A stretch of DNA of 64,000 nucleotides. Origin: an uncultured Balneolaceae bacterium (GTDB taxonomy: Bacteria > Bacteroidota > Rhodothermia > Balneolales > Balneolaceae). The notes beneath the pieces are model-generated. The model was given only the letters and a program-made list of their open reading frames with translations. It was not told the origin of the DNA and searched no databases. Positions 4,048-21,589 of the stretch are shown here, piece after piece. Each line of letters opens with the position of its first letter. Position 1 is the stretch's first letter. The stretch lies in assembly GCA_963974345.1 (NCBI GenBank), contig CAXBBW010000018.1, positions 2,369 through 66,368 of the forward strand, in the 5' to 3' direction. Position numbers and translations under genes: made by a program.

Positions 4048-5171
4048 AAATGTCCTAATTCATTGAGTAACGACTTTAAGTTAATCCTTGCACCAAAAAT
4101 ACGACTATCAGCTCCAGCATAAGGTAATATCAAGTCATCATTCCATTGATAATTCGCACAAATGAATAACACATTATCTACTCCTAGGCTTTCATCACCC
4201 TTTTGCTCTTCTGATCCTGTAGGTCTCATAAGTGGCTCGATTCGTTTTTCAGGTTTACATTTTCCTTCTTCTGAAAAATCTAGAATGGTTACTGCCAAAT
4301 CGTATTCCCGATTGCGATCAGGCAAATAATGTCCTTGATGGTAAATAGTTAAAAACCGATTATTACCAAGAGATATAGGTGGACCACCTGCTCCAATCCA
4401 GGACTCACTAAACTCCTCATAACGGTAACTAGCCATGATCATCCCTTTGGTTTCCCAAGGTCCATGCAGACTTTCAGAAGTAGCCCAGTGAAGAGCTTTT
4501 GGATTTTCCCCCTGCATTGGGCGATGCAACAACACCCATTTTCCATGAACCTGTTTCGGTAGTAATACCGCGTTCTTGTTGTCTACATCATTAAGGTTTC
4601 CTGAAATTGGCCCTTTTAACTCCCAATTGATGAAATCTTTAGTAGTTGCCAGACAAATATGAACTTTGTTCCGATCTTCTGATTTGTTGTAATAATATCC
4701 GGTATAAAAAAAGTAATAGGTTCCATTTATATAGGTACACCGTCCATCTTCAACACCTAAATTATGATAAGCTTCATCTGGAGAAATAGCTGGGGTTTCC
4801 TTTCTCCAAACCAGTTCAAGAGTTGGAGTAAAAACTGCTAACCCTGCTGATGAAGGAGCCAATCCCTTTTTGGGATCAACCTCGCCTTGTGCACGATATA
4901 ACATTACCGTTGCTCCACCCATTTCCAATAATTTTTTCTGTTCATCTGAATCCAATCCCCAGGCAACCATTAATGGACCTAATTTTTCTAAATCATCAAT
5001 AAGAACAGCAGCAGGATTCAATACTACTTTAGATTCCCAATGTGAATCTTGTTTGGGTACCAAAACAGGCATTCCTTCATTCATTCTTGTAATTTTCAGA
5101 GAATGATTGATTTCAATACTTCTCTCCAGAGCTTGTTCATACATTGGTGTTGCGTCTTTCAAATGTGGCAT
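4044..5171 (-). CDS. GH130 family beta-mannoside phosphorylase/glycosidase (cytoplasmic)
   Basis: No signal peptide. GH130-like blocks VVLNPAAV, GVEDGRCTYINGTYYFFYTGY, KNAVLLPKQVHGKWVLLHRP, IGAGGPP, YAGADSRI. Confidence 0.7.
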   Translation of the reverse strand: MPHLKDATPMYEQALERSIEINHSLKITRMNEGMPVLVPKQDSHWESKVVLNPAAVLIDDLEKLGPLMVAWGLDSDEQKKLLEMGGATVMLYRAQGEVDPKKGLAPSSAGLAVFTPTLELVWRKETPAISPDEAYHNLGVEDGRCTYINGTYYFFYTGYYYNKSEDRNKVHICLATTKDFINWELKGPISGNLNDVDNKNAVLLPKQVHGKWVLLHRPMQGENPKALHWATSESLHGPWETKGMIMASYRYEEFSESWIGAGGPPISLGNNRFLTIYHQGHYLPDRNREYDLAVTILDFSEEGKCKPEKRIEPLMRPTGSEEQKGDESLGVDNVLFICANYQWNDDLILPYAGADSRIFGARINLKSLLNELGHL

Positions 5172-5186
5172 TAAATCGAAATATTT

Positions 5187-6194
5187 TTATGAATTAGTTT
5201 TGTTTTGAAGCATCCAATCAAGCACATCCTGTAAAGGGGCTTGTGCATGACCAATTACGGAGTCGGCTGCGCCATAATACACGTGAAGTGTTTCCCCGAT
5301 TACGACAGCACCTTCCGGAAAAACCACATTATTCACATCACCGAAAAGTTCAAAGTCTAGCTCAGGCTCTAAAAGTGGAATTGGACTTTTTGCTATCACT
5401 TTTTCCGGATTTTCTAAGTCTAATAATGCCATACCCATTCTATACACATGGTTGTTATCCACCCCATGATAAATAAGTAACCAACCTTCATCCGTTTCAA
5501 TTGGAGTAGGACCAGCTCCAATTTTCAGATTTTCCCATTCAAATTCAGGACGCATTACGGTATGATCTTCCAGATTTTCTAAATGATGTTCCCAAAATCC
5601 CTCTTCAGGATTATGAAACTCCTGGATTGAATCGAGATAGATAATCTGAATATTAGGAACCACACGATGAAGCATGGCAATTTTACCGTTTATTCGTTTT
5701 GGGAAAATAACAGCATCTTTATCTCTTAGGTCTACTGGACCTGCAATACCGTTTTTTTCGATAGTTTTAAAATCGTAAGTAATTGCCAGACCAATTCTAA
5801 CTCCGTTTACCTCATCAAATGCATGACGTTGAAGAGCGGTATAGGTAATCAAATATTGACCGTCAAGTTTCGATATTCTGGGATCTTCTGATCCAAATTT
5901 ATTGAACCAATCATCGGTTCCAATAAAAGGTTCTTCCCTCCAATCGAAATGAATTCCGTCTTTACTCGAAGCATAACCGATGTACGAAATATATTTCTCG
6001 TCGAAACCAGTGTCTGGTTCTCCAGGTTGAACATTTTTCAACTTTATTCGTTCATAACCTTTTGGAATTGCCCTGAAAAGTAAATGGACTAACTCTCCGT
6101 CGTAAAAAGCACCGGGATTAAATACAGCTCCACTTGCCCACTCTATATCCTTTCTCGGTGCGAGTAAGGGAGTTTTTGTTTTTTTAAACAACAT
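5187..6194 (-). CDS. GH130 family beta-mannoside phosphorylase (cytoplasmic)
   Basis: No signal peptide. GAVFNPGAFYDGELVHLLFRA, GSEDPRISKLDGQYLITYTA, DKDAVIFPKRINGKIAMLHR, IGAGPTPIETDEGWLLIYHGV, YYGAADSVIG are typical GH130 blocks. Confidence 0.8.
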   Translation of the reverse strand: MLFKKTKTPLLAPRKDIEWASGAVFNPGAFYDGELVHLLFRAIPKGYERIKLKNVQPGEPDTGFDEKYISYIGYASSKDGIHFDWREEPFIGTDDWFNKFGSEDPRISKLDGQYLITYTALQRHAFDEVNGVRIGLAITYDFKTIEKNGIAGPVDLRDKDAVIFPKRINGKIAMLHRVVPNIQIIYLDSIQEFHNPEEGFWEHHLENLEDHTVMRPEFEWENLKIGAGPTPIETDEGWLLIYHGVDNNHVYRMGMALLDLENPEKVIAKSPIPLLEPELDFELFGDVNNVVFPEGAVVIGETLHVYYGAADSVIGHAQAPLQDVLDWMLQNKTNS

Positions 6195-6214
6195 AAATTT
6201 TAATTGCCCCGATG

Positions 6215-7666
6215 TTAGTTTTGATTAAGTAAAGTATTCAGTTCTGTTTCGGTAATAATTCTTGATGTAGAATCAGTAAGATTTAGAAGTACAGCAATTT
6301 TCTCCGTCTCTTGATTCTGGTTGACCGTAAATACCCGATATTGATAGCTTTTTCCATCTTTTATCCAAATTAAGGGTTCTTCTGATTTTGCATAAAACCA
6401 TTTGTTTGAAAGGGTAAATTGTTCTACTTCAAGTACCGTAAAGTCAGCTTCAATTGTAGATTCAGCACCAGAATTTTTATTTACGTTGTTTTCGCTGTTT
6501 ATTCCATCATATCCGTAACCATGAAGGGAATTGTACATTTTGGTTTCTGCCACATTATTCCCATTGAGCCAACTTGCTAATAAACCGGCCATAATTGCAT
6601 AATCATCGTTTTGGGTGGCTTCATATAATCTAATCATTCCTACTGAAGCTGCTCGGGTTGCATAGGCTATTTGTTCAAAATCTCTTTTGTTTGATGGATT
6701 TTGAAGATCGAAAGAATGAAACCAACCATTTACAAGTAGCATTGGGAAAAAGTTCTCGGCTTCAATTACTGCACTTTCTAGTTTTCCTGCTTCTGCTAAT
6801 GCCATTGTTTGAGAATTTCCCCAGCCATGCCAACCACCTTCCCAGGAAAGATGTGCACCATATGGAGCATTTGTAAGATCACCATATTGAAGCATTGCTA
6901 TACCTTCACTAAACTTATTAATTGCATCGTCATATTTCCCGTTTGATGAAACTTTAGATGCGGCAACCAATCCCAATAGTAATTCACTTGTAGCATCAGA
7001 GCCTGTTTCTCCTATCAACCATGTTGGCATTTCGAATCCATTTACTATTTTTGTTTTCGGGTATGCTTCAAGTACTTCATTTATGTGAGGAAGTATTTTA
7101 TCAACCGAAAGAAGACTCATATTTGCAAAAGAAGAATCATATTCTGCAAGAACTCTTGCACCGGTTCCTAATGCCCACACTGCTCTTCCTGCCCACCAAT
7201 TTACTTCATTCGCCACACTATTTTTATGCGTTGTGTTTTTCCTGAGTGAATTATCCCAAACAAAATTGTGAAATAAGCCATCTTCTGTTTGCATATACAT
7301 TACAAACCGTAATAATTCTTTCGCTTTTTCCGCTGATTCTTCGTTTCCGGTGAGTTCAAAATGCCGTAAGTAAACTACTGCTGCCCTTGCCGCATCATCA
7401 ACACAGGCTTCTCCTTCGTCGTCATCTCCAACCCAGTTATAGTCGGGGGCATCTGCATATATGTGTATAATTCGAAGATCCTCACCTCCATAACTAACTA
7501 CTTCGCTTAGATAATCAAGATGACTAAGATTTAATATGGAAGAAGCAGGGTCCTCCTTTCCTCCGCTTTCTTTACAACTCGCTAATATCATTAGGCAAAG
7601 GATCATAGAAACATAAAGTGTTCTTTTTTTGTATGGATGGATATTCATTGTAGAGTTTCTGTTCAT
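6215..7666 (-). CDS. Lipoprotein of unknown function in the glycan operon (possibly a helical-barrel glycan-active protein)
   Basis: Lipobox ILASC. Start overlaps the permease stop by 1 nt (TAATG). No motif I can assign. Confidence 0.3.
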   Translation of the reverse strand: MNRNSTMNIHPYKKRTLYVSMILCLMILASCKESGGKEDPASSILNLSHLDYLSEVVSYGGEDLRIIHIYADAPDYNWVGDDDEGEACVDDAARAAVVYLRHFELTGNEESAEKAKELLRFVMYMQTEDGLFHNFVWDNSLRKNTTHKNSVANEVNWWAGRAVWALGTGARVLAEYDSSFANMSLLSVDKILPHINEVLEAYPKTKIVNGFEMPTWLIGETGSDATSELLLGLVAASKVSSNGKYDDAINKFSEGIAMLQYGDLTNAPYGAHLSWEGGWHGWGNSQTMALAEAGKLESAVIEAENFFPMLLVNGWFHSFDLQNPSNKRDFEQIAYATRAASVGMIRLYEATQNDDYAIMAGLLASWLNGNNVAETKMYNSLHGYGYDGINSENNVNKNSGAESTIEADFTVLEVEQFTLSNKWFYAKSEEPLIWIKDGKSYQYRVFTVNQNQETEKIAVLLNLTDSTSRIITETELNTLLNQN

Positions 7667-8475
7667 TAACTTTTTAGACCTGAAGAGGCCATACTTTTGA
7701 TAAAATGTTTCTGGAAAATTAAATAAGCGATGATTACCGGAAGCGCCAATAAGAAAGCAGATGCTAACTGCGCCCCAATACTTGAATCTGACCCGCCACC
7801 TACGGCAAATAGTGCAACCATCTGGGGCATAGTCATTAAGCTTTGTTCACGAATCACAATAAGTGGCCAAAGCACCTCGTTCCAATTAGCTACAAAGGTC
7901 AGGATGGCAACAGTAACCACTACGGGTTTTGAAAGTGGTAAAATGATTCGGAATAATATCCCAAGTTCACTGCAACCATCTAATCTGGCAGCATCAACTA
8001 AATCCTGAGGTATAGTCAAAAAACTTTGGCGAAAAAGAAGAATAGAAAAAGCAGTGACCATAGTCGGAACAATTAGACCTGCAAGATGATCTGTTAACCC
8101 AAATTTTACAATCAAAATGTAGGTTGGAATTAGTGTAATTTGAAACGGAATCATCATTGTAAGCAGACTCAAAGAAAACATAAAGTCTCTTCCCTTCCAT
8201 TTGAGTCTTGAAAATGCATATCCTGTTATTGAGCCAAACAGAGTAACTGATATTGTAACCAGACTTGTCACAATCAAACTGTTTAAAAATCCCTTTGCAA
8301 TCGGGATGCGATCAAAAACGAGTATATAATTTTGCCATGTCCATATTTCAGGTAATAGTTCAATATTTCCTATTTCACCATCAGGCTTAAAAGTGCTGAA
8401 AAACATCCATATAAAGGGATAAGCAAAAACAATAGCACCGATAATAAGAGCTGAATATAGTAGCGTTTTTTTCAT
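7666..8475 (-). CDS. Carbohydrate ABC transporter permease (MalG-like)
   Basis: Six-TM pattern and EAA-like loop DAARLDGCSELGILFRIILPLSKP. I prefer the ATG at 8475 (MKKTLLYS...), 1 nt after the upstream stop, over the TTG at 8499. Confidence 0.85.
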   Translation of the reverse strand: MKKTLLYSALIIGAIVFAYPFIWMFFSTFKPDGEIGNIELLPEIWTWQNYILVFDRIPIAKGFLNSLIVTSLVTISVTLFGSITGYAFSRLKWKGRDFMFSLSLLTMMIPFQITLIPTYILIVKFGLTDHLAGLIVPTMVTAFSILLFRQSFLTIPQDLVDAARLDGCSELGILFRIILPLSKPVVVTVAILTFVANWNEVLWPLIVIREQSLMTMPQMVALFAVGGGSDSSIGAQLASAFLLALPVIIAYLIFQKHFIKSMASSGLKS

Positions 8476-8476
8476 T

Positions 8477-9346
8477 TTAGTACACCTCCGTTTCAACAAA
8501 TTTCCGTTGAATTTTCACTACTGTAAAGATGATTACCGCAAAAAATAGTCCCATTGTTGAAGCATAGCCCATGTGACCGAAATTAAATGCCTGATTATAG
8601 ATATAAAGTACTGCCGATAATGTGGAATTCATTGGACCACCACCGGTCATTACATAAGGTTCTATAAATAGTGAAAATCCTCCAATAACGGATAAAACAA
8701 TTACGGTAACAATAGTTGGGTTCAACATTGGTAAAGTGATATAGAAAAAGCGTTGAGTGGTACTGGCACCTTCCAACTCTGCTGCTTCATACAATTCAGC
8801 GGGAATACTTTGTAAACCTCCCATAAACAAAATCACATATAAACCCACATTTTTCCAAGTAGCCATAAAAGCGATGGAAGGCATTGCCCAATTTTCTGAA
8901 ACCAACCAGGGAATTTGCCCCATCCCGAATTTGTGAAGAAGTTGATTTAATAATCCAGTATCGTAATTGAATAGTTGCTGAAATAAAATGGTAACAACAA
9001 CTCCTGATACTACAACCGGTAAAAAATAAAGGGTTCTAAAGAAGCCTCTAGCTATGATTTTCTGGTTTAATAAATTGGCAAAGAACAGAGCCAAAATGAT
9101 CTGAAGTGGAATATGCAGGACTAAAAAGATGCCTGTGTTAATAATTGACTGTAAAAAAACTTCATCAGAAAAGACCCTAATAAAGTTTTTGAATCCAACA
9201 AATTCCATTGGAGTAACTACATCCCATCGATGAAAAACCAGAATCAATGAAAACACAACTGGATATACAAAAAACAAAGAGAGATGAGCCATATAAGGCA
9301 TACTCAACAAAAAGCCGGGTTTTATCATTTTAGAGAGTTTCTTCAT
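8477..9346 (-). CDS. Carbohydrate ABC transporter permease (MalF-like)
   Basis: Multi-TM pattern and EAA loop EAAELEGASTTQRFFYITLPML. Abuts the binding-protein gene. Confidence 0.85.
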   Translation of the reverse strand: MKKLSKMIKPGFLLSMPYMAHLSLFFVYPVVFSLILVFHRWDVVTPMEFVGFKNFIRVFSDEVFLQSIINTGIFLVLHIPLQIILALFFANLLNQKIIARGFFRTLYFLPVVVSGVVVTILFQQLFNYDTGLLNQLLHKFGMGQIPWLVSENWAMPSIAFMATWKNVGLYVILFMGGLQSIPAELYEAAELEGASTTQRFFYITLPMLNPTIVTVIVLSVIGGFSLFIEPYVMTGGGPMNSTLSAVLYIYNQAFNFGHMGYASTMGLFFAVIIFTVVKIQRKFVETEVY

Positions 9347-10672
9347 CTATTTATTCCACTCCCTCAAAATCTGAATGGCTTCAATCATTTCGAGTGTAGC
9401 CTCTTCCGGTGTCATTTTTCCATAAACAGAAGCTATTTCATAATACCGAGCAACAGAATCCAGGATTTCTTTAAAGTCACGAACGCTATCAACTCCTCTT
9501 GTAAAAGCTGCCTGTTCGGCAAAGCGCGCTAAACTCGGGTTTAGCTTAAAAAAATCTTTAAAGTCAGGATCGGTAAGTAATTCTTTTCTTATGGGTATCT
9601 GACTTGCAAACTCAAGAAGGCGATAATCTGCTTCTTTGCTGATTAGGAACTTTACAAAATCCCAGCTTTCCTGTGGGTATTTTGTATTTGAAAAAATGGC
9701 AATATTCTTGTGATCACCATAGGTATATGCTTCCCCTTCATAATCATCAGGAACCGGTAGAGGAGCGTAATCATATTCAAGAGATTCTGGTGCATTTTTC
9801 TCGAGAAAAGAAATATTCCAGGGCCCTGTAAATTCAACAGCAATTTTACTGTAGAGGAAAGCATTTCCTTGTAATGTAGATTGCGGGAAATAACCACCCT
9901 CATAAATCTCTTGGTAGAATTTAAATACTTTTTTTGATGCTTCTTCATCAATAGCCAATTCGCCTTTATCGAAAAATGTTTTACCGCCCGAAGCATTGAT
10001 ATAACTAGTGTAATAATCGTAATATCTTTGCCACCAAATCGGTCGGATATCTCTAAACCCCATCCATTGATCTACTCTTCCATCACCGTCAATATCTTTG
10101 GTAATTTTTGATGCGGCATCTAAAAACTCTGAATAAGTTCGTGGAAACTCATTAACTCCTGCATCTCTGAACATTTTGGCATTGTATTGTACCATAATAG
10201 GATTTGTTTTCCATGGTACCTGATAAGTATGCCCATCTTTAGCTTTCACACTTTCTAGAATATCTTCAGGAACCCGCTCGCCCATTACTTGATAGTAATC
10301 CTCAAAAGTATCGAGTGCTAACAAGCCTTTAGCTCGAATGAAATCGTTGGTAATCCCAGGCCAGATATTTGAACAAATATCCGGTGTAGTTCCGGCAACC
10401 ATCGCGGATAGCAAAACTTCTTCGCTCGACTGTCCTGCTGGTAATGCCTGTAGTTTAACCTGAACTACATGTCCTTTTGCATTCCATTCATCAACTAATT
10501 CCTTTGCTAAAGCAAATTCCTGAGGATTAGGAGATGACCAGTAAGTAATAGTTTTATTTCCATTCTCAGATTCCACGGTACTTTCATTGGAGTTATCGCA
10601 ACTAACACTGAATACAAGAAATAAACCTATCAGCCAGCTTGCTAGTACAGCAAAATCTTTATATTGAAGCAT
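9347..10672 (-). CDS. ABC transporter extracellular sugar-binding lipoprotein
   Basis: Lipobox VFSVSC. Family-1 solute-binding-protein-like length and composition. Located upstream of the two permeases. ATG at 10672 is preferred; the longest ORF begins at TTG 10696. Confidence 0.75.
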   Translation of the reverse strand: MLQYKDFAVLASWLIGLFLVFSVSCDNSNESTVESENGNKTITYWSSPNPQEFALAKELVDEWNAKGHVVQVKLQALPAGQSSEEVLLSAMVAGTTPDICSNIWPGITNDFIRAKGLLALDTFEDYYQVMGERVPEDILESVKAKDGHTYQVPWKTNPIMVQYNAKMFRDAGVNEFPRTYSEFLDAASKITKDIDGDGRVDQWMGFRDIRPIWWQRYYDYYTSYINASGGKTFFDKGELAIDEEASKKVFKFYQEIYEGGYFPQSTLQGNAFLYSKIAVEFTGPWNISFLEKNAPESLEYDYAPLPVPDDYEGEAYTYGDHKNIAIFSNTKYPQESWDFVKFLISKEADYRLLEFASQIPIRKELLTDPDFKDFFKLNPSLARFAEQAAFTRGVDSVRDFKEILDSVARYYEIASVYGKMTPEEATLEMIEAIQILREWNK

Positions 10673-10696
10673 TCTATGTACTGTATTAATACGCAA

Positions 10697-11743
10697 TCAA
10701 AATCCCATTTCAAGTGTAAGACTATGGATGTTACCCAATCTGCCCATGGTTTTATAGCCATAGCTGAGTTTAGCAAGTAATCCGGTAGACAATTTTTGAT
10801 GAACTCCGAATCCGGTGTTAAAACCTGATTCTACTTCTTTAAGAAACAAAGTTTCATAGCCTCCTCTCAAAAACACTCGCTGTTGAAATCCATATTCTCC
10901 ACCAACATTTACGCTTTCGTAATTCGAACTTGGATGAAGAGCATCTATCGCAATCAATACATTATGCATTGGAGTTTTAACGGGCTCGAAGGCAATCCCA
11001 AATTGAAAATTTAGAGGAAGACTCCATGAATCCGTTTCAAAATTAACGGGAATACGATCGTTGTTTCCTTCACTAATCGGATCGGGATCAACAAAGGTTC
11101 TTAAATCTCTCCCCTTCATTTTCATATCGCTACCGAAGTTGTAAATCGTAGCACCAATCACCATTCCGCCAAGAAAATCCGTTTTGTATTTAGTACCTAG
11201 ATCAATGGCAATGGCATTAGCTTTGGTATGCCAGATTCTTTGTTGGATGAACTTTAAGGTTCCACCAACACTAAATCGGTCGCCTACATTTGAAGCATAA
11301 GTAATCCCAAAAGATATATCAGCGGCATCAAAGGTTTCTCCGTTTCCATCCTGGAATTCTTCGGTTCGAACCAGCATTTCAGGAACACTAAGCATTGTAA
11401 GTGCGAAACCTACATTTCCAATTTTTTCAAAATTGAATACGGCGCCAATGTAATTGAAATCTAAACCGGTAACCCATTCACTATGTGTAGTAATGATTTC
11501 ATTCTTTGCCACAGAAGCAATTCCTGCCGGGTTCCAGTAAAGTGCTGAGGCATCATCAGAAACTGCAACAAATGCACCTCCCATTCCTGTTGCTCTACTA
11601 CCAACTCCTATTTGAAGGAATTCTGCAGCGGTAGTTCCAACTTTAGAAACCTTTTGTGCATGAAGCTGGATAGGTATAAACCCAAAGAATAGTACAGACA
11701 GAAAAATGAGATTCTTAATAGATATTTTCATGACTTTTCTCAT
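10697..11743 (-). CDS. PorV/UPF0164-like outer-membrane beta-barrel (T9SS cargo-shuttle family paralogue)
   Basis: Signal peptide, then GTTAAEFLQIGVGSRATGMGGAFVAVSDDASALYWNPAGIA, the hallmark N-terminal block of the PorV/UPF0164 family. Alternating beta-strand pattern with a terminal F. Start overlaps the upstream stop (ATGA). Confidence 0.65.
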   Translation of the reverse strand: MRKVMKISIKNLIFLSVLFFGFIPIQLHAQKVSKVGTTAAEFLQIGVGSRATGMGGAFVAVSDDASALYWNPAGIASVAKNEIITTHSEWVTGLDFNYIGAVFNFEKIGNVGFALTMLSVPEMLVRTEEFQDGNGETFDAADISFGITYASNVGDRFSVGGTLKFIQQRIWHTKANAIAIDLGTKYKTDFLGGMVIGATIYNFGSDMKMKGRDLRTFVDPDPISEGNNDRIPVNFETDSWSLPLNFQFGIAFEPVKTPMHNVLIAIDALHPSSNYESVNVGGEYGFQQRVFLRGGYETLFLKEVESGFNTGFGVHQKLSTGLLAKLSYGYKTMGRLGNIHSLTLEMGF

Positions 11744-14700
11744 TTTATCACCGCAAATCTTCCGGTTGTTTCACCAATACCTTCAGCCTCAATGTGATAC
11801 ATATAAACTCCAAAAGAGAGATTCATTCCGTCTTTAGTAACCAAATCCCATGCTTCCTGACCGTCCTCAATAGAAGAATCATGATAGAGTGTTTGTACTA
11901 ACTGTCCCGTGATCGTATAGATTCTGATAGTACATTTTGCAGGTAGTTTCATGAAATAAATGCGTCGTTCTCCCCTACCTGCCCGATACGTGTTTGCAGG
12001 TTCGAAATCGCTGGAAGCTACATATGGATTAGGTACTACAAAGACGTCTTTAAGACTTTCTTTTGCAAAATTTTTGTCCAATGCTCCCCCATTCATACTG
12101 AAGCGATATTGATCTGAATTTTGAAACGGTTTCGTAGTTTCGAAAACAAATGATGAACCGGGCTGGGGTTCTTCTCTGGTTAAATCAGGTTGAAGAACAG
12201 GATCTGGTGGAATTAAACGAATCGACCAACTCGCTCTCCAATTACCTCCAGCGAACTGAGGCTCCAATCCAGGTTCCGTTCCCATAATAATTACAATAAG
12301 CTCTCCATAATCGTATTGTCCATTACTTAATCCGTCTACATCTTCAATGATTGAAAAGCGTTCTTTTTGACCTGTAATCGTATTTTCAATATAGAATTTA
12401 GTAGGAATTTCACGCATCCCGAAAGCAACTCTCATTGAAGTATCAGATACATTTTCGGTAAAGTGAATTTCAAAATTAGCAGGATATCTGATAAATCTTG
12501 AAACAAACAAACTGTTATTTGAAGCCGGCTCTACCAGTGGAGTAAAGTTTCCACCATCACCTTCAAATCCAACACTACTATCAATAATTGTAATCTCAGA
12601 AGGGCCTTCAATATCAATCGAGAAACCATCAGCCAATGGGGTTTGAATAGTCCCTTCTTCTAGCGGACCTTCAAAAAAAGGCTCGCTGTCTCCCGTGCTT
12701 TGCAGTGTAGCAATCGGGTTTATATTGGTTTGCCAAGTAGAGTCGTTCTGAAAACTAAGAACATATTCTTTCCCTTCAACCACCGTACCTGTTGAAAGGA
12801 TATTAATTGAAATATTCCCAGTACCAATAATTTCTGATTCATCAAGATCGATATCAGGTGGAATATAACCAGCAGATGGAGCCCTTGGGACAACTACCGC
12901 AGTATTAACGTCTACATTGATATTCCCTGCTACATCATTTTTGATAATGGACGAGGTTGTGCTTGGCGAAATCCCTCTTATTTTTCCATCTTCACCAACC
13001 ACATAACCACCTTCAGAATCACGTTCCACATAACCCCGATCGTAAGGAACCAATGCATAATAGTACGTTTTCCCGTTGATTACATCCCGATCGATGTAGC
13101 TGTGTTTAAGTCCTGAATCATTACCCAGATTAAACTGAACTCCATTTACTGCTACAGGATGAAGTCCTCTTAATCCGTTTTTCAAGTCAAATTGAGCTAA
13201 TGGTTTTTGATAAATCGTACTTCCATAAGCATCGGTGATCAACAGATTTTCTTCAAAATTTGGTTCAGTTGAACGATAAATGAGATAACCTTCAAAATCG
13301 TATTCACCTAAAAACGGGTCGAACGAACTTTCTGCTTTATCATCCCAAAACAGAGTTACCATTTCGTCTCCTGCAACAGCAGTCAGGTTCGATTTATTTG
13401 GAGGACGAGCAAACTGGTAGTCAGCATTATAAATCTGCTGAACTATTTCTTTTTTTCGGGCAAGTGAAGAATTTGAAATATCTCTTGGATCGTTAAAATC
13501 TTTTTCCGCAAAAACCAAAGCCATTGAAAAACGTTCGGTTTGACCTGCTTTTAAAGGAAAAGCTCCAGACGAAAAGAACATCCCCAGATTTCTACCACCT
13601 TCAAGAACAATATCATCTAAAGGAGGAAGTGCTTCTGAAAAAAGCTCGAAATTCTGTTCATCATCAATCAACTCATATTGATGCACATCAAAAACTTGAA
13701 ACCCTGTTAATCCAATTTGGTCCGATTCATCTTTATCTAGACCATCAAAATTTGGCTCGCCTTCATCAGGTCTACCGTTTCCTTCACCTTCATCAATTCC
13801 AGGATAATTCGCTTGATTGGGACCTAATCCATCCATTCCCACATCATTATTAAGTGGCTCACCAGAATCCCAAATTCCGTTTTCATTGATATCTGAGTAG
13901 CTCAACCAATCCATATCCTCATCTCCAGTCCACCAATATCCAGATTGATAAGCTGGCATTTGTTCCAAGGGTAAATAGAACGTCTCAAATTTAGATATAT
14001 CATAGTTAGCTAGTACGTAACTCGTAATATTATCTTGACCTTCTATAAGTTGCCCTGCTCCACTTTCTCTACGCTCATTAGTAATCCCGTCAGAATCATT
14101 GTCTTTATTATCTGTAGAGTTCCCTGGTGATTCTAAGAATGAATAACCTGCAGTTCCTACTGGTCCCCATAAACCAGGAGAACCAATTCCATCATGATCC
14201 CACGCAAATGCGATATCTAAGTCTACATCATAGGCACCTTCATCATCACCTGAATCATCTGTTCCTCCTATTCCCCAATCAATGTATTGAGAGAAGTAGA
14301 CTTCGTCGTAATCAACATCACACTCGTTAGTAATTTCATACAACCAAAAAATTACATCTTGTGCCAAAGGGTGATTCCATTGAAATCCACGGGCTTTAAC
14401 TTCGATCCCTAAACCGCCCCGTGTTTCATCTCCCGTACATGGATAAAAATTATGTGGGGCTTTTGTCCATTCTTTATCTTCGGCATCATCATAAACGAAA
14501 TAGGTTTCCAAATCGGCATTAAGCACTCCTTTTCCAAACCATCCATTCCATTGTCCAGCCCAATCTACAGAACGATCTGGCCAAACTTGAGGCCATGTTC
14601 TGTTATCATCACTTCTTGCTGGAGAATCTTGCAATGGATTAGAAAAACCGTAAAGAGGAGCAAATCCCCAAGGCACTTTTGTAATTGGATCCAGATCAAT

Positions 14701-15039
14701 AAACTCTCTGTAATTTGTAGACATTGGAGTAATAGTATTTCCGAAAGCATCTTTGGTTTTTGCAGATACTATGAAAGCCACTCCATCCACATAAGAATGC
14801 CCACTTCCTTTAGGCCATTCTCCAGAAGGTTGATCTGGGTGACGAGCAATTTCTCCATGATTGGAAAACAATGTTCTTACTCTGTTTCCATCCATTACAC
14901 CCCATTGAGTCCACTTATTACTACCATGATCAATGTTTTCCTGAGCATTTACAGGTATAACCAATCCGGTTAAAACCAGGGCTAAGACGATAAGTAACCA
15001 CTGCATTTTCGTATTCAATATGTTCTCTTGTTTAATCAC
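11740..15039 (-). CDS. Large secreted surface protein with Ca-binding-like Asp-rich repeats and a variant T9SS C-terminal domain
   Basis: Signal peptide (MQWLLIVLALVLTGLVIPVNAQ if the ATG at 15006 is used; the longest ORF starts at GTG 15039). DxDxDG-like runs (DNKDNDSDG, DINENGIWDSGEP, DVGMDG, DKDESD). C-terminus VVPNPY...IRIYTITGQLVQTLY...GVYMYHIEA...RFAVIK. Confidence 0.55.
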   Translation of the reverse strand: MIKQENILNTKMQWLLIVLALVLTGLVIPVNAQENIDHGSNKWTQWGVMDGNRVRTLFSNHGEIARHPDQPSGEWPKGSGHSYVDGVAFIVSAKTKDAFGNTITPMSTNYREFIDLDPITKVPWGFAPLYGFSNPLQDSPARSDDNRTWPQVWPDRSVDWAGQWNGWFGKGVLNADLETYFVYDDAEDKEWTKAPHNFYPCTGDETRGGLGIEVKARGFQWNHPLAQDVIFWLYEITNECDVDYDEVYFSQYIDWGIGGTDDSGDDEGAYDVDLDIAFAWDHDGIGSPGLWGPVGTAGYSFLESPGNSTDNKDNDSDGITNERRESGAGQLIEGQDNITSYVLANYDISKFETFYLPLEQMPAYQSGYWWTGDEDMDWLSYSDINENGIWDSGEPLNNDVGMDGLGPNQANYPGIDEGEGNGRPDEGEPNFDGLDKDESDQIGLTGFQVFDVHQYELIDDEQNFELFSEALPPLDDIVLEGGRNLGMFFSSGAFPLKAGQTERFSMALVFAEKDFNDPRDISNSSLARKKEIVQQIYNADYQFARPPNKSNLTAVAGDEMVTLFWDDKAESSFDPFLGEYDFEGYLIYRSTEPNFEENLLITDAYGSTIYQKPLAQFDLKNGLRGLHPVAVNGVQFNLGNDSGLKHSYIDRDVINGKTYYYALVPYDRGYVERDSEGGYVVGEDGKIRGISPSTTSSIIKNDVAGNINVDVNTAVVVPRAPSAGYIPPDIDLDESEIIGTGNISINILSTGTVVEGKEYVLSFQNDSTWQTNINPIATLQSTGDSEPFFEGPLEEGTIQTPLADGFSIDIEGPSEITIIDSSVGFEGDGGNFTPLVEPASNNSLFVSRFIRYPANFEIHFTENVSDTSMRVAFGMREIPTKFYIENTITGQKERFSIIEDVDGLSNGQYDYGELIVIIMGTEPGLEPQFAGGNWRASWSIRLIPPDPVLQPDLTREEPQPGSSFVFETTKPFQNSDQYRFSMNGGALDKNFAKESLKDVFVVPNPYVASSDFEPANTYRAGRGERRIYFMKLPAKCTIRIYTITGQLVQTLYHDSSIEDGQEAWDLVTKDGMNLSFGVYMYHIEAEGIGETTGRFAVIK

Positions 15040-15049
15040 TATTTATCCT

Positions 15050-17719
15050 TTAAAAACTTATGTTCAAACCAATGCTAACCCGTCTGGGAGCAGAGTAGAA
15101 ATCGGGTCGAAATAAATATTCGTCTTTGGTATTTAATCCTTGTGGAATTCCTGTTTGAAACTGCAGATTTGGAAAAGCTCTTCCCGTATCGGTATACACT
15201 TCAGTTTCATTCTGAGTATCGAATAGGTTATAAATTCTTGCAAACAAACTGGCATTAGTACCTTTAATAGTAAAACTTTTAGAGGCATACATATCAAAGT
15301 TGATGTAGGTTGGTTTCCTGTCTGAGTTCACCAATCCAATTCTCTCGTTCGATTTTGAAGGGGTATAAGGAAATCCGGAGCCATATTCACCAAGTATCGT
15401 TAATATCCAATTACTCTTTGTCAAAAAGCTTGTACTGGCATTCAGTTGATGCCTTCTGTCCCAATCTAATGGTACCAATTGTTTTTCAGTTTGTACTCCA
15501 GCCAGTTCGTCTAAGGCTCTTGATTGTGGGTCACTGGCATTTCCAGATGCAACCTGAAACGAATAATTTATATTGAAACTGAAATTATTCTGCATTCTTT
15601 TTTCAACATTCAGTATCAGTCCTTTAGTTTGACCATAATCAGTGTTGATATATCTTCCATATTTAGAAAGTGGGAATGGTTCATCAAAACCAGGTTGAAT
15701 GGTTTCGATTCGGGTACCAAGTAGATTTCTAATATCTTTATAAAAAGCAGTAACCTGCACTGAAAGAATATTACTAAAGCCTTGCTGAAGCCCAATTTCA
15801 TAAGAAACCGTTTGCTGTGGTTTCAAATCTGGATTACCAAAAATACGGCTTAATCCAACTTCTGGGTTATAAGTATAATCCGGGTTTATATAGAGATATT
15901 GAAAAGAAGGAACCTGAAAGAAATGACCATAAGAAACATGAACAACTCCAGTTTCTGAAATGGTATAAGCGATTCCAAATCGGGGGGAAATTTGCCAGTT
16001 TGGGGAGGTATTTGATTTAGCAGAGGTCGTTGGTTGTCCATAATCTGAAGGGAATGTACTGTTTGCATCAAAATAATCGTACCTAAGCCCCATATTAACT
16101 ACCATATAGTCAAACTCTATTTTATCCTGTATATAAGCACTTACTTCAATAGGTCGCTCATCAAAATAAACATGATCGGGAGTTCCCTCAGGTGGAATTG
16201 CCGGCTCAAAACTGGTTGATGAATTGTTCAATACATCGAACGTTCTGAATTCAATAGAATAAAGTTTTAACAAAGCTCCTGCTTTTACCATATTCTGGCG
16301 ATTCATTTGGCTGGTAATATCAAAACCAGTTAATAAAGTCCCGGTTTCCCTTGTCGTATGATCCATTACAACACCACCTCTGTAAAACCCGAAATTACCT
16401 CCAAGAAAACTCTGAGCGTCATCTCTTGGATATCTGGGATCAAGTGGATTTTCGTAAACATACGATTTACTCCGGTTAATAAAGTAAGCCCCCTTCAGAT
16501 TGATGAAAGTTTTATTACTTATCAAATAGTTGTCTACAATATTAAGACTTATGGATTCTCCATAATTGGTAGGAATTCCATCGGGGTTATAGCTGTATAG
16601 GTGATTATAGCCTTGACCTTCATCATTTTGATATAAACCCGTAACTGATAGTTTATTCCCTTTTATATGGGAAGATGTGAGCTTTAACTGAACCGTATTT
16701 TGCTTACTCCAATTCATAGAACTGTATGAACTATCTCCTAATTCAGGTACAAAAACCTGTCTTCCATCCACTGTTACAAATTCACCATTCTCCTGACCGT
16801 CATATTTTGGCCGAACAATATTTTGTCCATATAAATAACCGTCATCGTTTACAGCTCTGCCCGACATAAAGAAATGAAGTTTATTATTGAACCCTGGAAC
16901 AGATCCACTTAGAGAACCTTGAAAATCATATATATCAAGTGGTGAAATAGATTTATTGTTTTGGAATGCTTCATTATTCGTAGTTATATAATCTCCACTA
17001 TAAACTGAGAAGTTACCTTCATATTCATCTCGACCATCTTTGGTAACAATATTTACTACACCTGATTGTGCCTGCCCAAATTCTGCATTAAATGTTCCTG
17101 AAATAACTTCCACTTCCTGTATGGAATTGTTTTCCACCTGATAGGCATAGGAGTTATCGAACGAATCGTTGATAGGAATTCCATCTACCAGATAAGCAAC
17201 TTCTCCAAGTCTCCCCCCTCTAAAGTGACCATCAACTACTCCGGCCTGAAGGTTTACAACATCATTGAAGTTTTCAACTGGCATAATTTGCATTTCAGCT
17301 GAAGAAATAGATGCTTTCGATGAAGTTAAATCCTTTTCGACAATAGGTCTCTCAGCAGTTACAACTACTTCCTCTCCTTCAAACACACTTTCGCTTAAAG
17401 TAAAATCAATATTCGTTGTTTGGTTGATTTTAACTCGGACATCCTGAACAATTTGAGTTTTAAATCCCAAAAAAGAAGCTTTTAAATTATACGTACCCGG
17501 TGTAATATTTAAGATTACATAATAACCTTCAAAATCGGTTACTGCACCTTGTAAAGTACCTTCAATAACTACATTAACACCCGGTAATGTTTCTCCGGTC
17601 TCTGCATCAACTATCTGACCGGTAATTTTACCGGTAGTTAAAATATTAGGAGCCTTAGTTCCATTAATCAGAAATAAAGTGACAACAATCAGAAGAAGGG
17701 CACTCTTTGTTATTTGCAT
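15050..17719 (-). CDS. TonB-dependent receptor with N-terminal CarboxypepD_reg domain (not obviously SusC-type)
   Basis: GKITGQIVDAETGETLPGVNVVIEGT...YNLKASFLGFKTQ (carboxypeptidase regulatory-like). Plug region EEVVVTAERPIVEKD...MPVENFNDVVNLQAGV. C-terminal barrel ending in F. ATG at 17719 (MQITKSALLLIV...) is preferred to 17782. Confidence 0.85.
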   Translation of the reverse strand: MQITKSALLLIVVTLFLINGTKAPNILTTGKITGQIVDAETGETLPGVNVVIEGTLQGAVTDFEGYYVILNITPGTYNLKASFLGFKTQIVQDVRVKINQTTNIDFTLSESVFEGEEVVVTAERPIVEKDLTSSKASISSAEMQIMPVENFNDVVNLQAGVVDGHFRGGRLGEVAYLVDGIPINDSFDNSYAYQVENNSIQEVEVISGTFNAEFGQAQSGVVNIVTKDGRDEYEGNFSVYSGDYITTNNEAFQNNKSISPLDIYDFQGSLSGSVPGFNNKLHFFMSGRAVNDDGYLYGQNIVRPKYDGQENGEFVTVDGRQVFVPELGDSSYSSMNWSKQNTVQLKLTSSHIKGNKLSVTGLYQNDEGQGYNHLYSYNPDGIPTNYGESISLNIVDNYLISNKTFINLKGAYFINRSKSYVYENPLDPRYPRDDAQSFLGGNFGFYRGGVVMDHTTRETGTLLTGFDITSQMNRQNMVKAGALLKLYSIEFRTFDVLNNSSTSFEPAIPPEGTPDHVYFDERPIEVSAYIQDKIEFDYMVVNMGLRYDYFDANSTFPSDYGQPTTSAKSNTSPNWQISPRFGIAYTISETGVVHVSYGHFFQVPSFQYLYINPDYTYNPEVGLSRIFGNPDLKPQQTVSYEIGLQQGFSNILSVQVTAFYKDIRNLLGTRIETIQPGFDEPFPLSKYGRYINTDYGQTKGLILNVEKRMQNNFSFNINYSFQVASGNASDPQSRALDELAGVQTEKQLVPLDWDRRHQLNASTSFLTKSNWILTILGEYGSGFPYTPSKSNERIGLVNSDRKPTYINFDMYASKSFTIKGTNASLFARIYNLFDTQNETEVYTDTGRAFPNLQFQTGIPQGLNTKDEYLFRPDFYSAPRRVSIGLNISF

Positions 17720-17803
17720 GATATGTGTTAGGTCAACGGTTGGTTTTAAAAAGGATTCCCGGGCATTCAACCCGAGATCCATGGATATAACATGATTGTT
17801 ATA

Positions 17804-20455
17804 TTATTTAATCAATGTCATTCTTTTCACTTCAGCAAAATTAGAAGTGCTTAAGCGGTACAAGTAAACTCCACTTGGTAAGTTCGCCGCATTAAAGTTA
17901 ATGCTATGCATACCACTGCTCATTTTCGAATCTGTAATTAAATCTGCTACTTTTTGCCCCAGCATATTGAATACTGAAAGACTAACAACGTCAGTTTGAG
18001 CAAGCTCAAAACTAATATTAGTAGAAGGGTTGAAAGGATTCGGGTAATTTTGATTTAACTGAACTTTGAGAGGTCGATCTGTTCTTTCCGCGGGTTCGTT
18101 AGCAACCAATGTACCAACCGGAAGATCTGCTAGATTGGTGATACTAACATCATCCCAATAAGTAACGCCTTCGAAATGGTGCCAGTAGCGCAGGCGGACT
18201 TCCAAGCCAACCGCATCATCTGGTGGATAAACCACAAATGCGTATTGAGTCCAACCAGAATCTTCCACCCGGGTAGCTAACGGGATTACGTTTGGATTGT
18301 AATCACCATTTAATCGAATGTCTAGGCCTCCAATTTCGTTATAACCTGCTGCTCCAGATTCTAAGCTGCTATACCAAAGTGCGGTCATCCCAATATTGTT
18401 GTCTGCTTTCCCAATACTGTCTGGGAAAGGAACGTCCTCGTACTTCACCCAGTAGCTAACTAATACAGGTTCGCCAGTAGTTACCGGAACACGATCACTA
18501 ATTGCAACGGCTTCGCTACCTTCTGCATTTAGCTGTTCAATTCTATGACTATACGTTCCGGTATGCGCTTCAGCATCGGTTCGAGTCATCGCAAACTGTA
18601 AAGTTTCAGGCCAATCTGCTGCGCCTTGATCAAAATTACCTGGAGCATACCAAGTATACCAGGTATCGCCCATGTCCATATTTGGATTGAACCAACCACC
18701 AGCCCAGCCTTCAGCTCCTTCTGCTGCGCGGATAAAGATATCTTCTAAGTATACCGTACCAGTAGCACTTGCTCCTTTACGGAAGGTAATGCGAACACTT
18801 TTAGCTGCCTGTGAAGTAGGCAATGTAATTGCTCCCAAAGATAAACTGTTTATTTCTACCCAACCTGAACTTGCAGCATCTTGTGGTACATCAATTACAA
18901 CTGGTGCACCTAGTACATCAACTCCTTGGGCGTCAAAAAACTCATACACTAATTGGAATTTTTCAGCATCGGTAGCTGGGTTTGTATTTACTCCCTCTAC
19001 AAATACCCAGCCTCCTACAATGATTTCAGGAGTTCCATCACCAGGAATTCCTCCTACCCAATTACGCACTGCTTCACCTTGCGCCCATGAGGCCGCTCCG
19101 GTGCCACTTAATTTTAAGCTATAACTTGGGGTACGGTACTGTTCGGTACTCCATGTTGCTCCTGCCCCTTCCGGACTCCAATAAGCTGGGGTTTCTGCTT
19201 CAAACCCACCATTGCTTAGAAGATCTTCCATATTATCTGTTATATCAGAAACAGGTGCAATAAAAACATCATCCCAATAAGTAACGCCTTCGAAATGGTG
19301 CCAGTAGCGCAGGCGGACTTCCAAGCCAACCGCATCATCTGGTGGATAAACCACAAATGCGTATTGAGTCCAACCAGAATCTTCCACCCGGGTAGCTAAC
19401 GGGATTACGTTTGGATTGTAATCACCATTTAATCGAATGTCTAGGCCTCCAATTTCGTTATAACCTGCTGCTCCAGATTCTAAGCTGCTATACCAAAGTG
19501 CGGTCATCCCAATATTGTTGTCTGCTTTCCCAATACTGTCTGGGAAAGGAACGTCCTCGTACTTCACCCAGTAGCTAACTAATACAGGTTCGCCAGTAGT
19601 TACCGGAACACGATCACTAATTGCAACGGCTTCGCTACCTTCTGCATTTAGCTGTTCAATTCTATGACTATACGTTCCGGTATGCGCTTCAGCATCGGTT
19701 CGAGTCATCGCAAACTGTAAAGTTTCAGGCCAATCTGCTGCGCCTTGATCAAAATTACCTGGAGCATACCAAGTATACCAGGTATCGCCCATGTCCATAT
19801 TTGGATTGAACCAACCACCAGCCCAGCCTTCAGCTCCTTCTGCTGCGCGGATAAAGATATCTTCTAAGTATACCGTACCAGTAGCACTTGCTCCTTTACG
19901 GAAGGTAATGCGAACACTTTTAGCTGCCTGTGAAGTAGGCAATGTAATTGCTCCCAAAGATAAACTGTTTATTTCTACCCAACCTGAACTTGCAGCATCT
20001 TGTGGTACATCAATTACAACTGGTGCACCTAGTACATCAACTCCTTGGGCGTCAAAAAACTCATACACTAATTGGAATTTTTCAGCATCGGTAGCTGGGT
20101 TTGTATTTACTCCCTCTACAAATACCCAGCCTCCTACAATGATTTCAGGAGTTCCATCACCAGGAATTCCTCCTACCCAATTACGCACTGCTTCACCTTG
20201 CGCCCATGAGGCCGCTCCGGTGCCACTTAATTTTAAGCTATAACTTGGGGTACGGTACTGTTCGGTACTCCATGTTGCTCCTGCCCCTTCCGGACTCCAA
20301 TAAGCTGGGGTTTCTGCTTCAAACCCACCATTGCTTAGAAGATTAATACTTTCAGCTTGTGAAAGTATGGTATTAGTTTGAGCCATAACTGAACTTGATA
20401 CCAAAAAGGTAAAAAGAAACAGCGTACTCAAACATATTTTAGTAAATGTTTTCAT
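17804..20455 (-). CDS. T9SS-secreted protein with two identical ~360-aa CBM4/9-like (NGGFE...) double modules; putative surface glycan-binding protein
   Basis: Signal peptide MKTFTKICLSTLFLFTFLVSSSVMAQ (ATG at 20455; the longest ORF begins at TTG 20497). Repeated LLSNGGFEAETPAYW...GTVYLEDIFI and ...VTYWDDV jelly-roll-like modules. C-terminal LNQNYPNPFNPSTNISFEL...GVYLYRL...MTLIK. Confidence 0.65.
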   Translation of the reverse strand: MKTFTKICLSTLFLFTFLVSSSVMAQTNTILSQAESINLLSNGGFEAETPAYWSPEGAGATWSTEQYRTPSYSLKLSGTGAASWAQGEAVRNWVGGIPGDGTPEIIVGGWVFVEGVNTNPATDAEKFQLVYEFFDAQGVDVLGAPVVIDVPQDAASSGWVEINSLSLGAITLPTSQAAKSVRITFRKGASATGTVYLEDIFIRAAEGAEGWAGGWFNPNMDMGDTWYTWYAPGNFDQGAADWPETLQFAMTRTDAEAHTGTYSHRIEQLNAEGSEAVAISDRVPVTTGEPVLVSYWVKYEDVPFPDSIGKADNNIGMTALWYSSLESGAAGYNEIGGLDIRLNGDYNPNVIPLATRVEDSGWTQYAFVVYPPDDAVGLEVRLRYWHHFEGVTYWDDVFIAPVSDITDNMEDLLSNGGFEAETPAYWSPEGAGATWSTEQYRTPSYSLKLSGTGAASWAQGEAVRNWVGGIPGDGTPEIIVGGWVFVEGVNTNPATDAEKFQLVYEFFDAQGVDVLGAPVVIDVPQDAASSGWVEINSLSLGAITLPTSQAAKSVRITFRKGASATGTVYLEDIFIRAAEGAEGWAGGWFNPNMDMGDTWYTWYAPGNFDQGAADWPETLQFAMTRTDAEAHTGTYSHRIEQLNAEGSEAVAISDRVPVTTGEPVLVSYWVKYEDVPFPDSIGKADNNIGMTALWYSSLESGAAGYNEIGGLDIRLNGDYNPNVIPLATRVEDSGWTQYAFVVYPPDDAVGLEVRLRYWHHFEGVTYWDDVSITNLADLPVGTLVANEPAERTDRPLKVQLNQNYPNPFNPSTNISFELAQTDVVSLSVFNMLGQKVADLITDSKMSSGMHSINFNAANLPSGVYLYRLSTSNFAEVKRMTLIK
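18146..20343. repeat. Direct duplication: two apparently 100% identical 1079-bp copies (18146-19224 and 19265-20343) separated by a unique 40-bp linker; period 1119 bp
   Basis: Line-by-line comparison at offset 1119 showed no mismatch. The shadow ORFs 18502-18690/19621-19809 and 18672-19124/19791-20243 in the track are identical. Confidence 0.9.
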
Positions 20456-20514
20456 AGAGTTCTGCTTATTTATTAATGTTTTATCTGATCTATCCAACGA
20501 CTAGTATCACTTTA

Positions 20515-20542: not shown

Positions 20543-21589
20543 TTAAACTGAATTTCTAACAACTAATTCAGTTGGAATAGTGAGTTGATGACTCCCTCTC
20601 TGAAATTTTGAGGGTTTAATGTCACTCTCATCAAGAATTTCGGTGAGGTAGCGAAGTGCTAATTCTCCGAACTGTTCTTTAAAAACTCGAATGGTCGTAA
20701 GCTGAGGTGAAGCAAACTTTGCTCCATCTACATCATCAAAACCAACTACAGCTATATCTTCGGGTACTTTGATATGATGTTGTTCAGCGTACTTCATAAA
20801 ACCTAATGCCATTGCATCATTTGCACAAAAGACAGCAGTAGGTGCTGCTCCCGATTTCATTAGTTTTGCACCAAGATTATATCCGGTTTGCAACGTAGGT
20901 GAATCCTCTTCCTCAAGAAAAACCAAATCAGAGGTGTCCTTATGTCCTTCTTTTAACATTGCAAGTTGATAGCCTTCCAAACGTTCTGAGATACTGGGGT
21001 GATATGGATCTGCACCTAGAAACGATATCCTTGAATGACCTTTACCTATTAAATATCGAACCGCTTCTATAGAGGCATTCCTATTATCGACAGAAATACT
21101 TGGAAATGACTTATACTTATAATCAACTAACACAAAAGGAATACCTGATTCTTCTACTTCTTCCAACAATTCGCCACTTACTTTTCCGGCGATAATTATT
21201 CCATCTACATTTCTTTCTTTAAGCAATCTAGGTGTATCCTCACCTGCTTTATAATCATCAGAAACAGTAGCTAGTAATACATATAAATTATGTTTCTTTG
21301 ACTCAAATTCAGCTCCAAGAAAAATACGGGTGTAAAAAGGTTCACTTAGTGTAAAGTGGGTTTCACGTAGTATGAAGCCAATATTATTTGTTCTGTTGGA
21401 AGCAAGATTACGGGCTGATGCAGTAGGCACATAACCAAGTTCTTCAATAGAATTCAGTATGTCTTTTCTTTTTTCGTCACTTACATATCCTTTTTGATTT
21501 ACAACCATTGAAACAGTTGACATAGAGGCGTTTGCATGTATTGCAACGTCTTTTATAGTGACTTTTTTCTTCGTTTTAGTGTTTGTCAA
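20543..21589 (-). CDS. LacI family transcriptional regulator
   Basis: HTH block VTIKDVAIHANASMSTVSMVVNQKGYVSDEKRKDILNSIEELGYVPTASARNLA followed by a periplasmic-binding-protein-like sugar domain. The start is uncertain: the longest ORF begins at TTG 21652 but would cover the operator palindrome, so TTG 21589 (MTNTKTKKKVTIKD) is proposed. Confidence 0.85.
   Translation of the reverse strand: MTNTKTKKKVTIKDVAIHANASMSTVSMVVNQKGYVSDEKRKDILNSIEELGYVPTASARNLASNRTNNIGFILRETHFTLSEPFYTRIFLGAEFESKKHNLYVLLATVSDDYKAGEDTPRLLKERNVDGIIIAGKVSGELLEEVEESGIPFVLVDYKYKSFPSISVDNRNASIEAVRYLIGKGHSRISFLGADPYHPSISERLEGYQLAMLKEGHKDTSDLVFLEEEDSPTLQTGYNLGAKLMKSGAAPTAVFCANDAMALGFMKYAEQHHIKVPEDIAVVGFDDVDGAKFASPQLTTIRVFKEQFGELALRYLTEILDESDIKPSKFQRGSHQLTIPTELVVRNSV

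Follow-up and report, generated by a model that had tools for sequence, protein, structure and literature searches.

Two identical carbohydrate-binding-like modules in a predicted surface protein of an uncultured Balneolaceae bacterium, probably kept alike by recombination

The repeat and the gene that carries it

The window analyzed here is a stretch of 64,000 nucleotides from an uncultured marine Balneolaceae bacterium (assembly GCA_963974345.1, contig CAXBBW010000018.1, positions 2,369 to 66,368 of the forward strand), and our subject is one gene within it, which encodes a predicted surface protein containing the same long module twice. The gene sits in a glycan-use locus, between a LacI regulator and a TonB-dependent receptor (Table 1). 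Its longest open reading frame (ORF) on the minus strand spans 17804-20497. The true start is the ATG at 20455, which yields a protein of 883 aa; the gene is called in this way on an identical TARA Oceans scaffold (L062), and homologues begin at the matching MK.. start.

An earlier note, made from the letters alone, had described a perfect 1,079-bp duplication at an offset of 1,119 bp, interrupted by a 40-bp linker. A direct base-by-base comparison of the two 1,079-bp copies gave 0 mismatches, confirming that description, and the identity at the 1,119-bp offset starts and stops precisely at the repeat coordinates. The offset equals 373 codons, so that the reading frame is kept, and the 40-bp spacer is unique sequence. 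A chance origin is impossible for a repeat of such length. In a self-comparison of the whole genome (27 contigs, 3.84 Mb), these two copies were the only ones, with no third copy. On translation, the module peptide runs LLSNGGFEAETPAYW...VTYWDDV and the linker peptide reads FIAPVSDITDNMED, both as the earlier note had given them. The identity ends where the paralogous homology ends, namely at the linker on one side and at the N- and C-terminal flanks on the other.

Table 1. Features of the repeat-bearing gene and its neighbors (positions in the window).
Feature	Position	Strand	Basis
Surface protein coding sequence, 883 aa: signal peptide, module, linker, module, spacer, type IX secretion system (T9SS) type-A sorting domain	17804..20455	-	ORF list and translation; start as on TARA scaffold L062
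Probable signal peptide MKTFTKICLSTLFLFTFLVSSSVMAQ	20378..20455	-	Suggested by the sequence: hydrophobic N-terminus ending A-Q
Repeat copy, module 1 (N-terminal; 359 aa, two CBM4/16/22-like β-sandwiches)	19265..20343	-	Exact identity; AlphaFold and Foldseek; Pfam CBM_4_9
40-bp spacer; codes, jointly with 2 nt from the repeat, for the linker FIAPVSDITDNMED; putative junction of the ancient tandem duplication	19225..19264	-	
Repeat copy, module 2 (C-terminal, closer to the anchor)	18146..19224	-	Exact identity
T9SS type-A C-terminal sorting domain (Por_Secre_tail)	17822..18046	-	Pfam PF18962; TIGR04183
TonB-dependent receptor with CarboxypepD_reg N-domain, directly downstream; probable import partner	15050..17782	-	Pfam
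LacI-family regulator, directly upstream, 348-aa form	20543..21589	-	Pfam, NCBIfam; 348 aa as called on L062
Remaining same-strand locus: 1,099-aa secreted protein, PorV-like barrel, ABC (ATP-binding cassette) sugar-binding protein and two permeases, 483-aa unknown, two GH130 phosphorylases	4044..15039	-	Pfam

Architecture and predicted function of the protein

From the N- to the C-terminus, the protein comprises a signal-like hydrophobic segment, the 359-aa module, a 14-aa linker, the same module again, a spacer of ~35 residues, and the type-A T9SS sorting domain. Only the signal peptide and about 12 residues lie ahead of module 1. The sorting domain (residues 818-892 of P0001) was identified by Pfam PF18962 (E = 1.3e-10) and by TIGR04183 (43.5 bits, cut-off 23). 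The genome also encodes the PorU sortase (1,064 bits) and about 95 sorting tails. With a C-terminal tail and the matching machinery in the genome, the protein qualifies as a type-A cargo of the T9SS.

The earlier note had likened each module to a pair of carbohydrate-binding modules (CBMs), and the structural data agree. The Pfam profile CBM_4_9 (PF02018) matched the whole protein with 51.5 bits against a cut-off of 25.9, a score summed over weak stretches, and a sequence search of the module against the PDB gave no match at E <= 1. An AlphaFold model of one module, based on 34 sequences (predicted local distance difference test, pLDDT, 85.9; predicted template modeling score, pTM, 0.85), contained two β-sandwiches. 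The best PDB fold match obtained with Foldseek was the tandem CBM22-1/CBM22-2 of Paenibacillus Xyn10C (4xup, E = 6e-11); others included the mannan-/cellulose-binding CBM16 (template modeling score, TM, 0.62-0.66 on the target) and CBM4-2 of Rhodothermus marinus (TM 0.58). The β-sandwich fold and the profile match together place the module among the CBM4/9/16/22-type domains. Since each module has two β-sandwiches and occurs twice, the protein is predicted to contain four CBM-like domains in the order A-B-A-B.

Based on fold, family, and gene order, we infer that the product is a T9SS-exported, surface-anchored glycan-binding protein with its binding head present twice. Most likely, it captures a β-linked glycan at the cell surface with the two identical heads, which would provide avidity, and passes the glycan to the adjacent TonB-dependent receptor.

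Age of the duplication

From the 158 homologues found in a protein search, the best 120 were taken and analyzed together with the query (121 proteins in all). The earlier note had proposed a comparison of orthologues for module number, and this set indeed contained one-, two-, and three-module forms (39, 60, and 22 proteins, respectively). Nearly all two-module proteins from Balneolales and Rhodothermales share a linker of 13-19 aa with the pattern F[IV]APVS...N. The start of this linker resembles the sequence after the last module (for example, FIAPM, FITPL, or AIVSV), while its end resembles the sequence before the first module (...N), which is the expected form of a tandem-duplication junction.

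The nearest relative (L058; 88% aa identity) has a linker identical to that of the window at the protein level and in 40/42 nt at the DNA level. In the N- and C-terminal regions, the two genes show about 79% DNA identity, and in the modules 76-92%. The extra conservation of the 42-nt linker could be either chance, on a segment of 42 nt, or functional constraint. In lineages whose two modules have drifted apart, such as P0036/38/40, P0026/31, and P0054/55/58/60, each module is nearest to the one at the same position in other species. The shared layout and linker and this positional orthology indicate that the duplication is old and predates the species in which it occurs.

One of the causes offered in the earlier note was a very recent duplication. 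Under this scenario, a one-module ancestor of this lineage would have doubled its module too lately for the copies to diverge. The lack of any difference over 1,079 bp would suit such an origin, as would the existence of one-module homologues. A fresh event, however, would have made a new junction from the post-module and pre-module sequences of this very gene, whereas the actual linker is of the type found throughout the family: it agrees with the linker of the nearest relative and is unlike the sequences flanking the modules in this gene (SITNLADL... and ...SQAESIN). Moreover, the nearest relative already has two modules. With the layout and the linker common to this relative and to two-module homologues across two orders, and with positional orthology in the diverged lineages, we abandoned the recent duplication as very improbable.

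Homogenization of the modules within genomes

Within the two-module proteins, the modules were 100% identical to each other in 11/60, at least 99% identical in 17/60, and at least 95% identical in 29/60, while the closest module in another 90% cluster was 64-92% identical. When all modules were placed on one maximum-likelihood tree, both modules of a protein came out as exclusive sisters in 43/60 proteins; the species concerned differ by 10-50%. The three-module proteins form a natural contrast group that is not homogenized, in which a protein's own modules form a clade in only one of the 22. Among these relatives, P0068-P0113 (~1,177 aa, many labelled KSB1) have modules ~60% identical to each other, with positional orthology kept.

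The same pattern appeared in closed genomes. The two copies differed by 1 mismatch in 1,080 bp in CP030887.1 (99.9%), and were 98.1% identical in Roseithermus CP030158.1 and 97.0% identical on a circular 3.85-Mb contig (L057). The pattern is therefore not solely an effect of short-read assembly.

The differences that remain between copies are unevenly distributed. In L058, the 126 differences are concentrated in the first half of the module, with an identical run of 311 bp and 98-100% identity over most of the second half. The copies in L057 differ at 35 positions and share an identical stretch of 349 bp. The first 941 bp in L003 and the first 959 bp in L005 are identical, and all of the differences (15 and 17, respectively) come after, within the last ~120-130 bp. 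L007 has one 95% block within a background of 64-86%. The window itself is uniform, with 0 differences. As judged from their patterns, these mosaics represent gene-conversion tracts of varying length, with conversion apparently least frequent near the edge of the homology.

Purifying selection acting only at the protein level, with no recombination between copies, might also be invoked to keep the modules alike. They are strongly constrained, and of the 34 codons that differ in L057, 32 are synonymous. Such selection leaves synonymous sites free to change, yet the two copies in the window lack even a synonymous difference. Over the same length, the DNA identity to the orthologous modules of the nearest relative is only 76-92%, and protein-level selection alone thus cannot explain the identity. 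The blocks of perfect identity beside blocks of ~75% in L058 are likewise unlike the outcome of uniform selection. Taken together, we regard this explanation as having practically no probability.

We therefore consider, with good confidence, that concerted evolution by intragenic recombination, comprising gene conversion and unequal crossover, explains the identical modules. According to this model, both modules would go back to a single ancient duplication, in tandem and in frame (period of 373 codons), with the 14-aa linker as its junction. Homologous recombination between the two 1.1-kb copies, presumably by a RecA-type mechanism, would then keep overwriting one copy with the other and so maintain identity at the base level. 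Gene conversion would leave tracts of variable length, and unequal crossover would generate one-module and occasionally three-module alleles.

Changes in module number

Two R. marinus strains differ in module number. One has two modules (L061) and the other has one (L063); their flanks are 99.6-99.8% identical, and the difference amounts to exactly 1,110 bp, or one unit. The two-module gene has the family linker, while the one-module gene, located on a 3.22-Mb contig, is without it. One-module forms occur at 28 separate places on the module tree. The retrieved Balneolaceae-like homologues with the linker all have two modules, and none has three.

The two-module R. marinus-like gene shows a further irregularity at L061:6180-7370 (SPAdes contig NODE_1, ERZ795093) in comparison with L063 (AGIV01000001.1). 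There, the segment that follows module 2 begins with the first 25 nt of linker-type sequence in place of its own start, and the sequence switches back at a 5-nt GGTGG microhomology, with a gain of 5 nt, a frame shift, and loss of the T9SS tail (842-aa product). The change resembles the result of a conversion tract running on beyond the module, into the homology of the old junction, and thereby disrupting the gene; an assembly error is the alternative.

Reliability of the exact identity and of the copy number

An assembly effect, which the earlier note had also raised, bears on the precise figures. In such a case, two or more real modules with slightly different sequences would have been collapsed into one node and traversed twice, making the identity, and maybe the copy number, artefactual. 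The window is 100% identical over 15.8 kb, repeat included, to the TARA metagenome scaffold; the genome is in 27 contigs, and a 990-bp repeat lies at two contig ends. These features indicate that the genome is most likely a short-read metagenome-assembled genome (MAG). The contig-end repeat occupies the end of C24 (G000:C24 19940-20927) and the start of C25 (1-988), in inverted orientation with 97.5% identity, and it probably broke the assembly there. Inside contigs, the only long exact repeats are two tandem loops with short unique spacers. Tandem loops with a short unique spacer are the only long repeats that graph (de Bruijn) assemblers are known to traverse.

Several results weigh against our interpretation or limit its reach. 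An identity of exactly 100% at the DNA level was found only in short-read assemblies (the window, L017, L020, L025, L034, and L061), whereas closed or long-read assemblies had 1 to 35 or more differences, with identities of 93% or lower in other lineages, and nanopore MAGs had identities of only 76-93%. The assembler may have walked one collapsed copy twice, in which case zero may slightly overstate the truth, and the same assembly graph would also fit three copies. For some of the one-module forms located on short contigs, the assembler may have passed over the loop. A collection of 5.8 billion proteins contained no one- or three-module allele of this species, and a query for exact copies of the 40-bp linker among JGI metagenome contigs gave no match. 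The proposed glycan binding, anchoring at the surface, and partnership with the receptor derive from fold, family, and gene order.

Conversely, collapse is not automatic: the copies retain 4-17 differences in short-read relatives (L003, L004, L005, and L010). The single mismatch in the closed genome CP030887.1 shows that near-zero divergence is real. The two assemblies of the window sequence agree, and the uniformly two-module Balneolaceae-like homologues with the linker argue in the same direction. An assembly effect is thus excluded as the cause of the two-module architecture, and we regard it as unlikely as the cause of the perfect identity or of the copy number; if true, it would lower the 100% to perhaps 99% or more and leave the biology unchanged. 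In our reading, the two-module architecture and the near-identity are real, while exactly 0 differences and exactly two copies rest on short-read metagenome assemblies.

The earlier note's suggestion of ongoing gene conversion or copy-number change is supported by the comparative data, namely the clustering of modules by genome in 43/60 proteins, the mosaics, and the difference of one unit between the R. marinus strains. No one- or three-module allele of this species itself was found.

Some 20 short-read MAG contigs end inside the gene (L021, L024, L029-L033, L035, L036, L039, L043-L047, L050, L051, L054, and L055), and in Balneola sp. EA18-04 the gene is split over two contigs (L036 and L050). 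Such contig ends, which also fit an assembly effect, are consistent with the repeat breaking assemblies, so that the family will be under-counted and mis-annotated in MAG catalogues.

The surrounding locus and base composition

The order LacI regulator, repeat-bearing gene, receptor, and ~1,098-aa protein is kept in L056, L057, L058, L061, and L063, which comprise Balneolaceae-like genomes and R. marinus. A GH94-like protein is encoded further downstream on the same strand (1483-4047, minus), and a MalK-type ATPase is transcribed divergently. The two GH130 phosphorylases (4044-6194) and the GH94-like protein end the same-strand gene string, with the ABC sugar importer between. The GH130 and GH94-like genes, together with the CBM16-like fold, hint at a substrate of the β-mannoside or β-glucan type for the locus.

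The guanine-plus-cytosine (GC) content of the gene is 46%, compared with 36% for the genome. Codon positions 1 and 2 have GC fractions of 0.58 and 0.49, while position 3 has 0.318, compared with 0.24-0.32 in the neighboring genes. Horizontal transfer of a GC-rich island and GC-biased conversion were both rejected, because the excess GC sits in codon positions 1 and 2 and therefore reflects the amino-acid composition, which is rich in Gly, Ala, Trp, Asp, and Glu.

The number of promoter-like sites (10) showed no excess over shuffled sequences (10.4). Terminator-like sites numbered 10 against 3.0 in the shuffles, but two pairs (four of the ten) each count a single coding sequence twice. For the antisense ORFs at 18672-19124 and 19791-20243 (plus strand), no family was matched; they mirror the two repeat copies and probably do not represent genes. 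We also rejected a diversity-generating or phase-variation system. The locus genes scanned against Pfam included no reverse transcriptase or invertase, and the copies are without any difference.

A second repeat gene in the same genome

Apart from the repeat described so far, the genome contains a single long exact repeat (G000:C2:229884-231000 and 231216-232332), which is 1,117 bp long, 100% identical, and has a period of 1,332 bp, or 444 codons. It lies inside a gene for a 1,008-aa T9SS cargo protein (L060:5373-8399, minus), directly downstream of another TonB receptor of the CarboxypepD_reg type. The module of this second protein, present twice, is unrelated to the CBM module. Its AlphaFold model (pLDDT 88.9) resembles a right-handed β-helix and weakly matches PL6 alginate lyase, pectate lyases, and phage tailspikes. 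The family has 3,086 matches, is listed as Pfam PF28492 in the precomputed table, and includes proteins with 1, 2, or 3 modules. A protein's own modules formed an exclusive clade in 59/77 two-module and 34/39 three-module members.

Two unrelated module families, the CBM pair and the β-helix, thus behave in the same way beside TonB receptors, which might point to a rule rather than an accident. We tentatively propose, while considering it rather improbable, that selection has made homogenized, duplicated binding heads a design rule for glycan capture without SusD in Balneolales, Rhodothermales, Ignavibacteria, and related groups. Partners of TonB receptors that are anchored through the T9SS would keep two or three identical modules so that all heads follow the same substrate, and the 1.1-1.3-kb repeats would act as a reversible dial between 1, 2, and 3 modules for avidity or reach.

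These proteins form a whole family of uncharacterized surface proteins in marine and hot-spring relatives of the Bacteroidota, whose two sugar-binding halves would long have been locked together by recombination. In short-read genomes and MAGs, such genes will be broken, collapsed, or wrongly counted in a systematic way, and trees or selection tests on such modules mislead unless conversion is accounted for. If the two-head design is functional, the family would offer a handle on how SusD-less bacteria capture glycans for TonB-dependent import.

Relation to known systems

It is already well established that long, DNA-identical repeats in surface proteins of bacteria can evolve in concert, and we describe no new mechanism. 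The process is known and the protein family is new to it; the added value lies in the breadth of the comparative evidence and in the second family from the same genome.

The closest known case is the haemagglutinin HagA of Porphyromonas gingivalis. In PMC13390158 (citing Han et al. 1996; Kozarov et al. 1998), HagA is described as a T9SS cargo with two to four contiguous direct repeats of ~1.3 kb, which encode adhesin domains and vary in number with the strain. Both proteins are T9SS cargos of a Bacteroidota lineage with large intragenic direct repeats (~1.3 kb in HagA and 1.1 kb here) encoding binding domains, and the repeat number varies in both, from two to four in HagA and from one to three in the CBM-module family. 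The two share no sequence relationship, and the HagA repeats are cleaved-adhesin domains from a host-associated pathogen that bind red cells and haem. In contrast, the proteins described here contain pairs of CBM4/16/22-like sandwiches, come from free-living marine and thermophilic bacteria, and are encoded in a glycan-use locus beside a TonB receptor. In the CBM-module family, homogenization extends lineage-wide, across dozens of species.

The Periscope Proteins (SasG, Rib, Sgo_0707, and CdrA; Whelan et al. 2021, PMC8201768) are surface proteins whose tandem repeats are highly identical in DNA. Intragenic recombination has been proposed to add or remove their repeats, and their adjacent domains break the rule of <50% identity between neighbors (PMC8201768). 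The protein described here likewise combines DNA-identical repeats (100%) with a predicted surface location, here through a T9SS sorting tail. Periscope domains are small (about 80-130 aa), form arrays of up to >40, and build a rod that projects a separate N-terminal binding domain. Unlike them, the present protein has two 373-aa units only, and these units are themselves the putative binding domains, so that there is no separate head and no rod-plus-head arrangement.

In Helicobacter pylori babA/babB, gene conversion homogenizes coding segments of surface proteins and leaves mosaic tracts with sharp identity boundaries. These are separate genes at different loci, whereas the segments considered here are two halves of one reading frame.

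Surface glycan-binding proteins (SGBPs) and SusD, from the polysaccharide utilization loci of Bacteroidota, are non-catalytic, multi-domain, carbohydrate-binding surface proteins; the canonical ones are lipoproteins that partner a SusC-type transporter. The present gene resembles them in encoding a predicted surface protein of carbohydrate-binding type beside a TonB-dependent transporter and a sugar-responsive regulator (compare CHU_1279, PMC12016534). The differences are that no SusD is present at the locus, that a T9SS tail serves as the predicted anchor in place of a lipobox, and that the receptor, with 81 bits, falls far below the SusC/RagA cut-off of 368 bits. On these grounds, the protein does not belong to the SGBP/SusD family, and we infer that it is a glycan-binding partner of the receptor that is SGBP-/SusD-like in its working.

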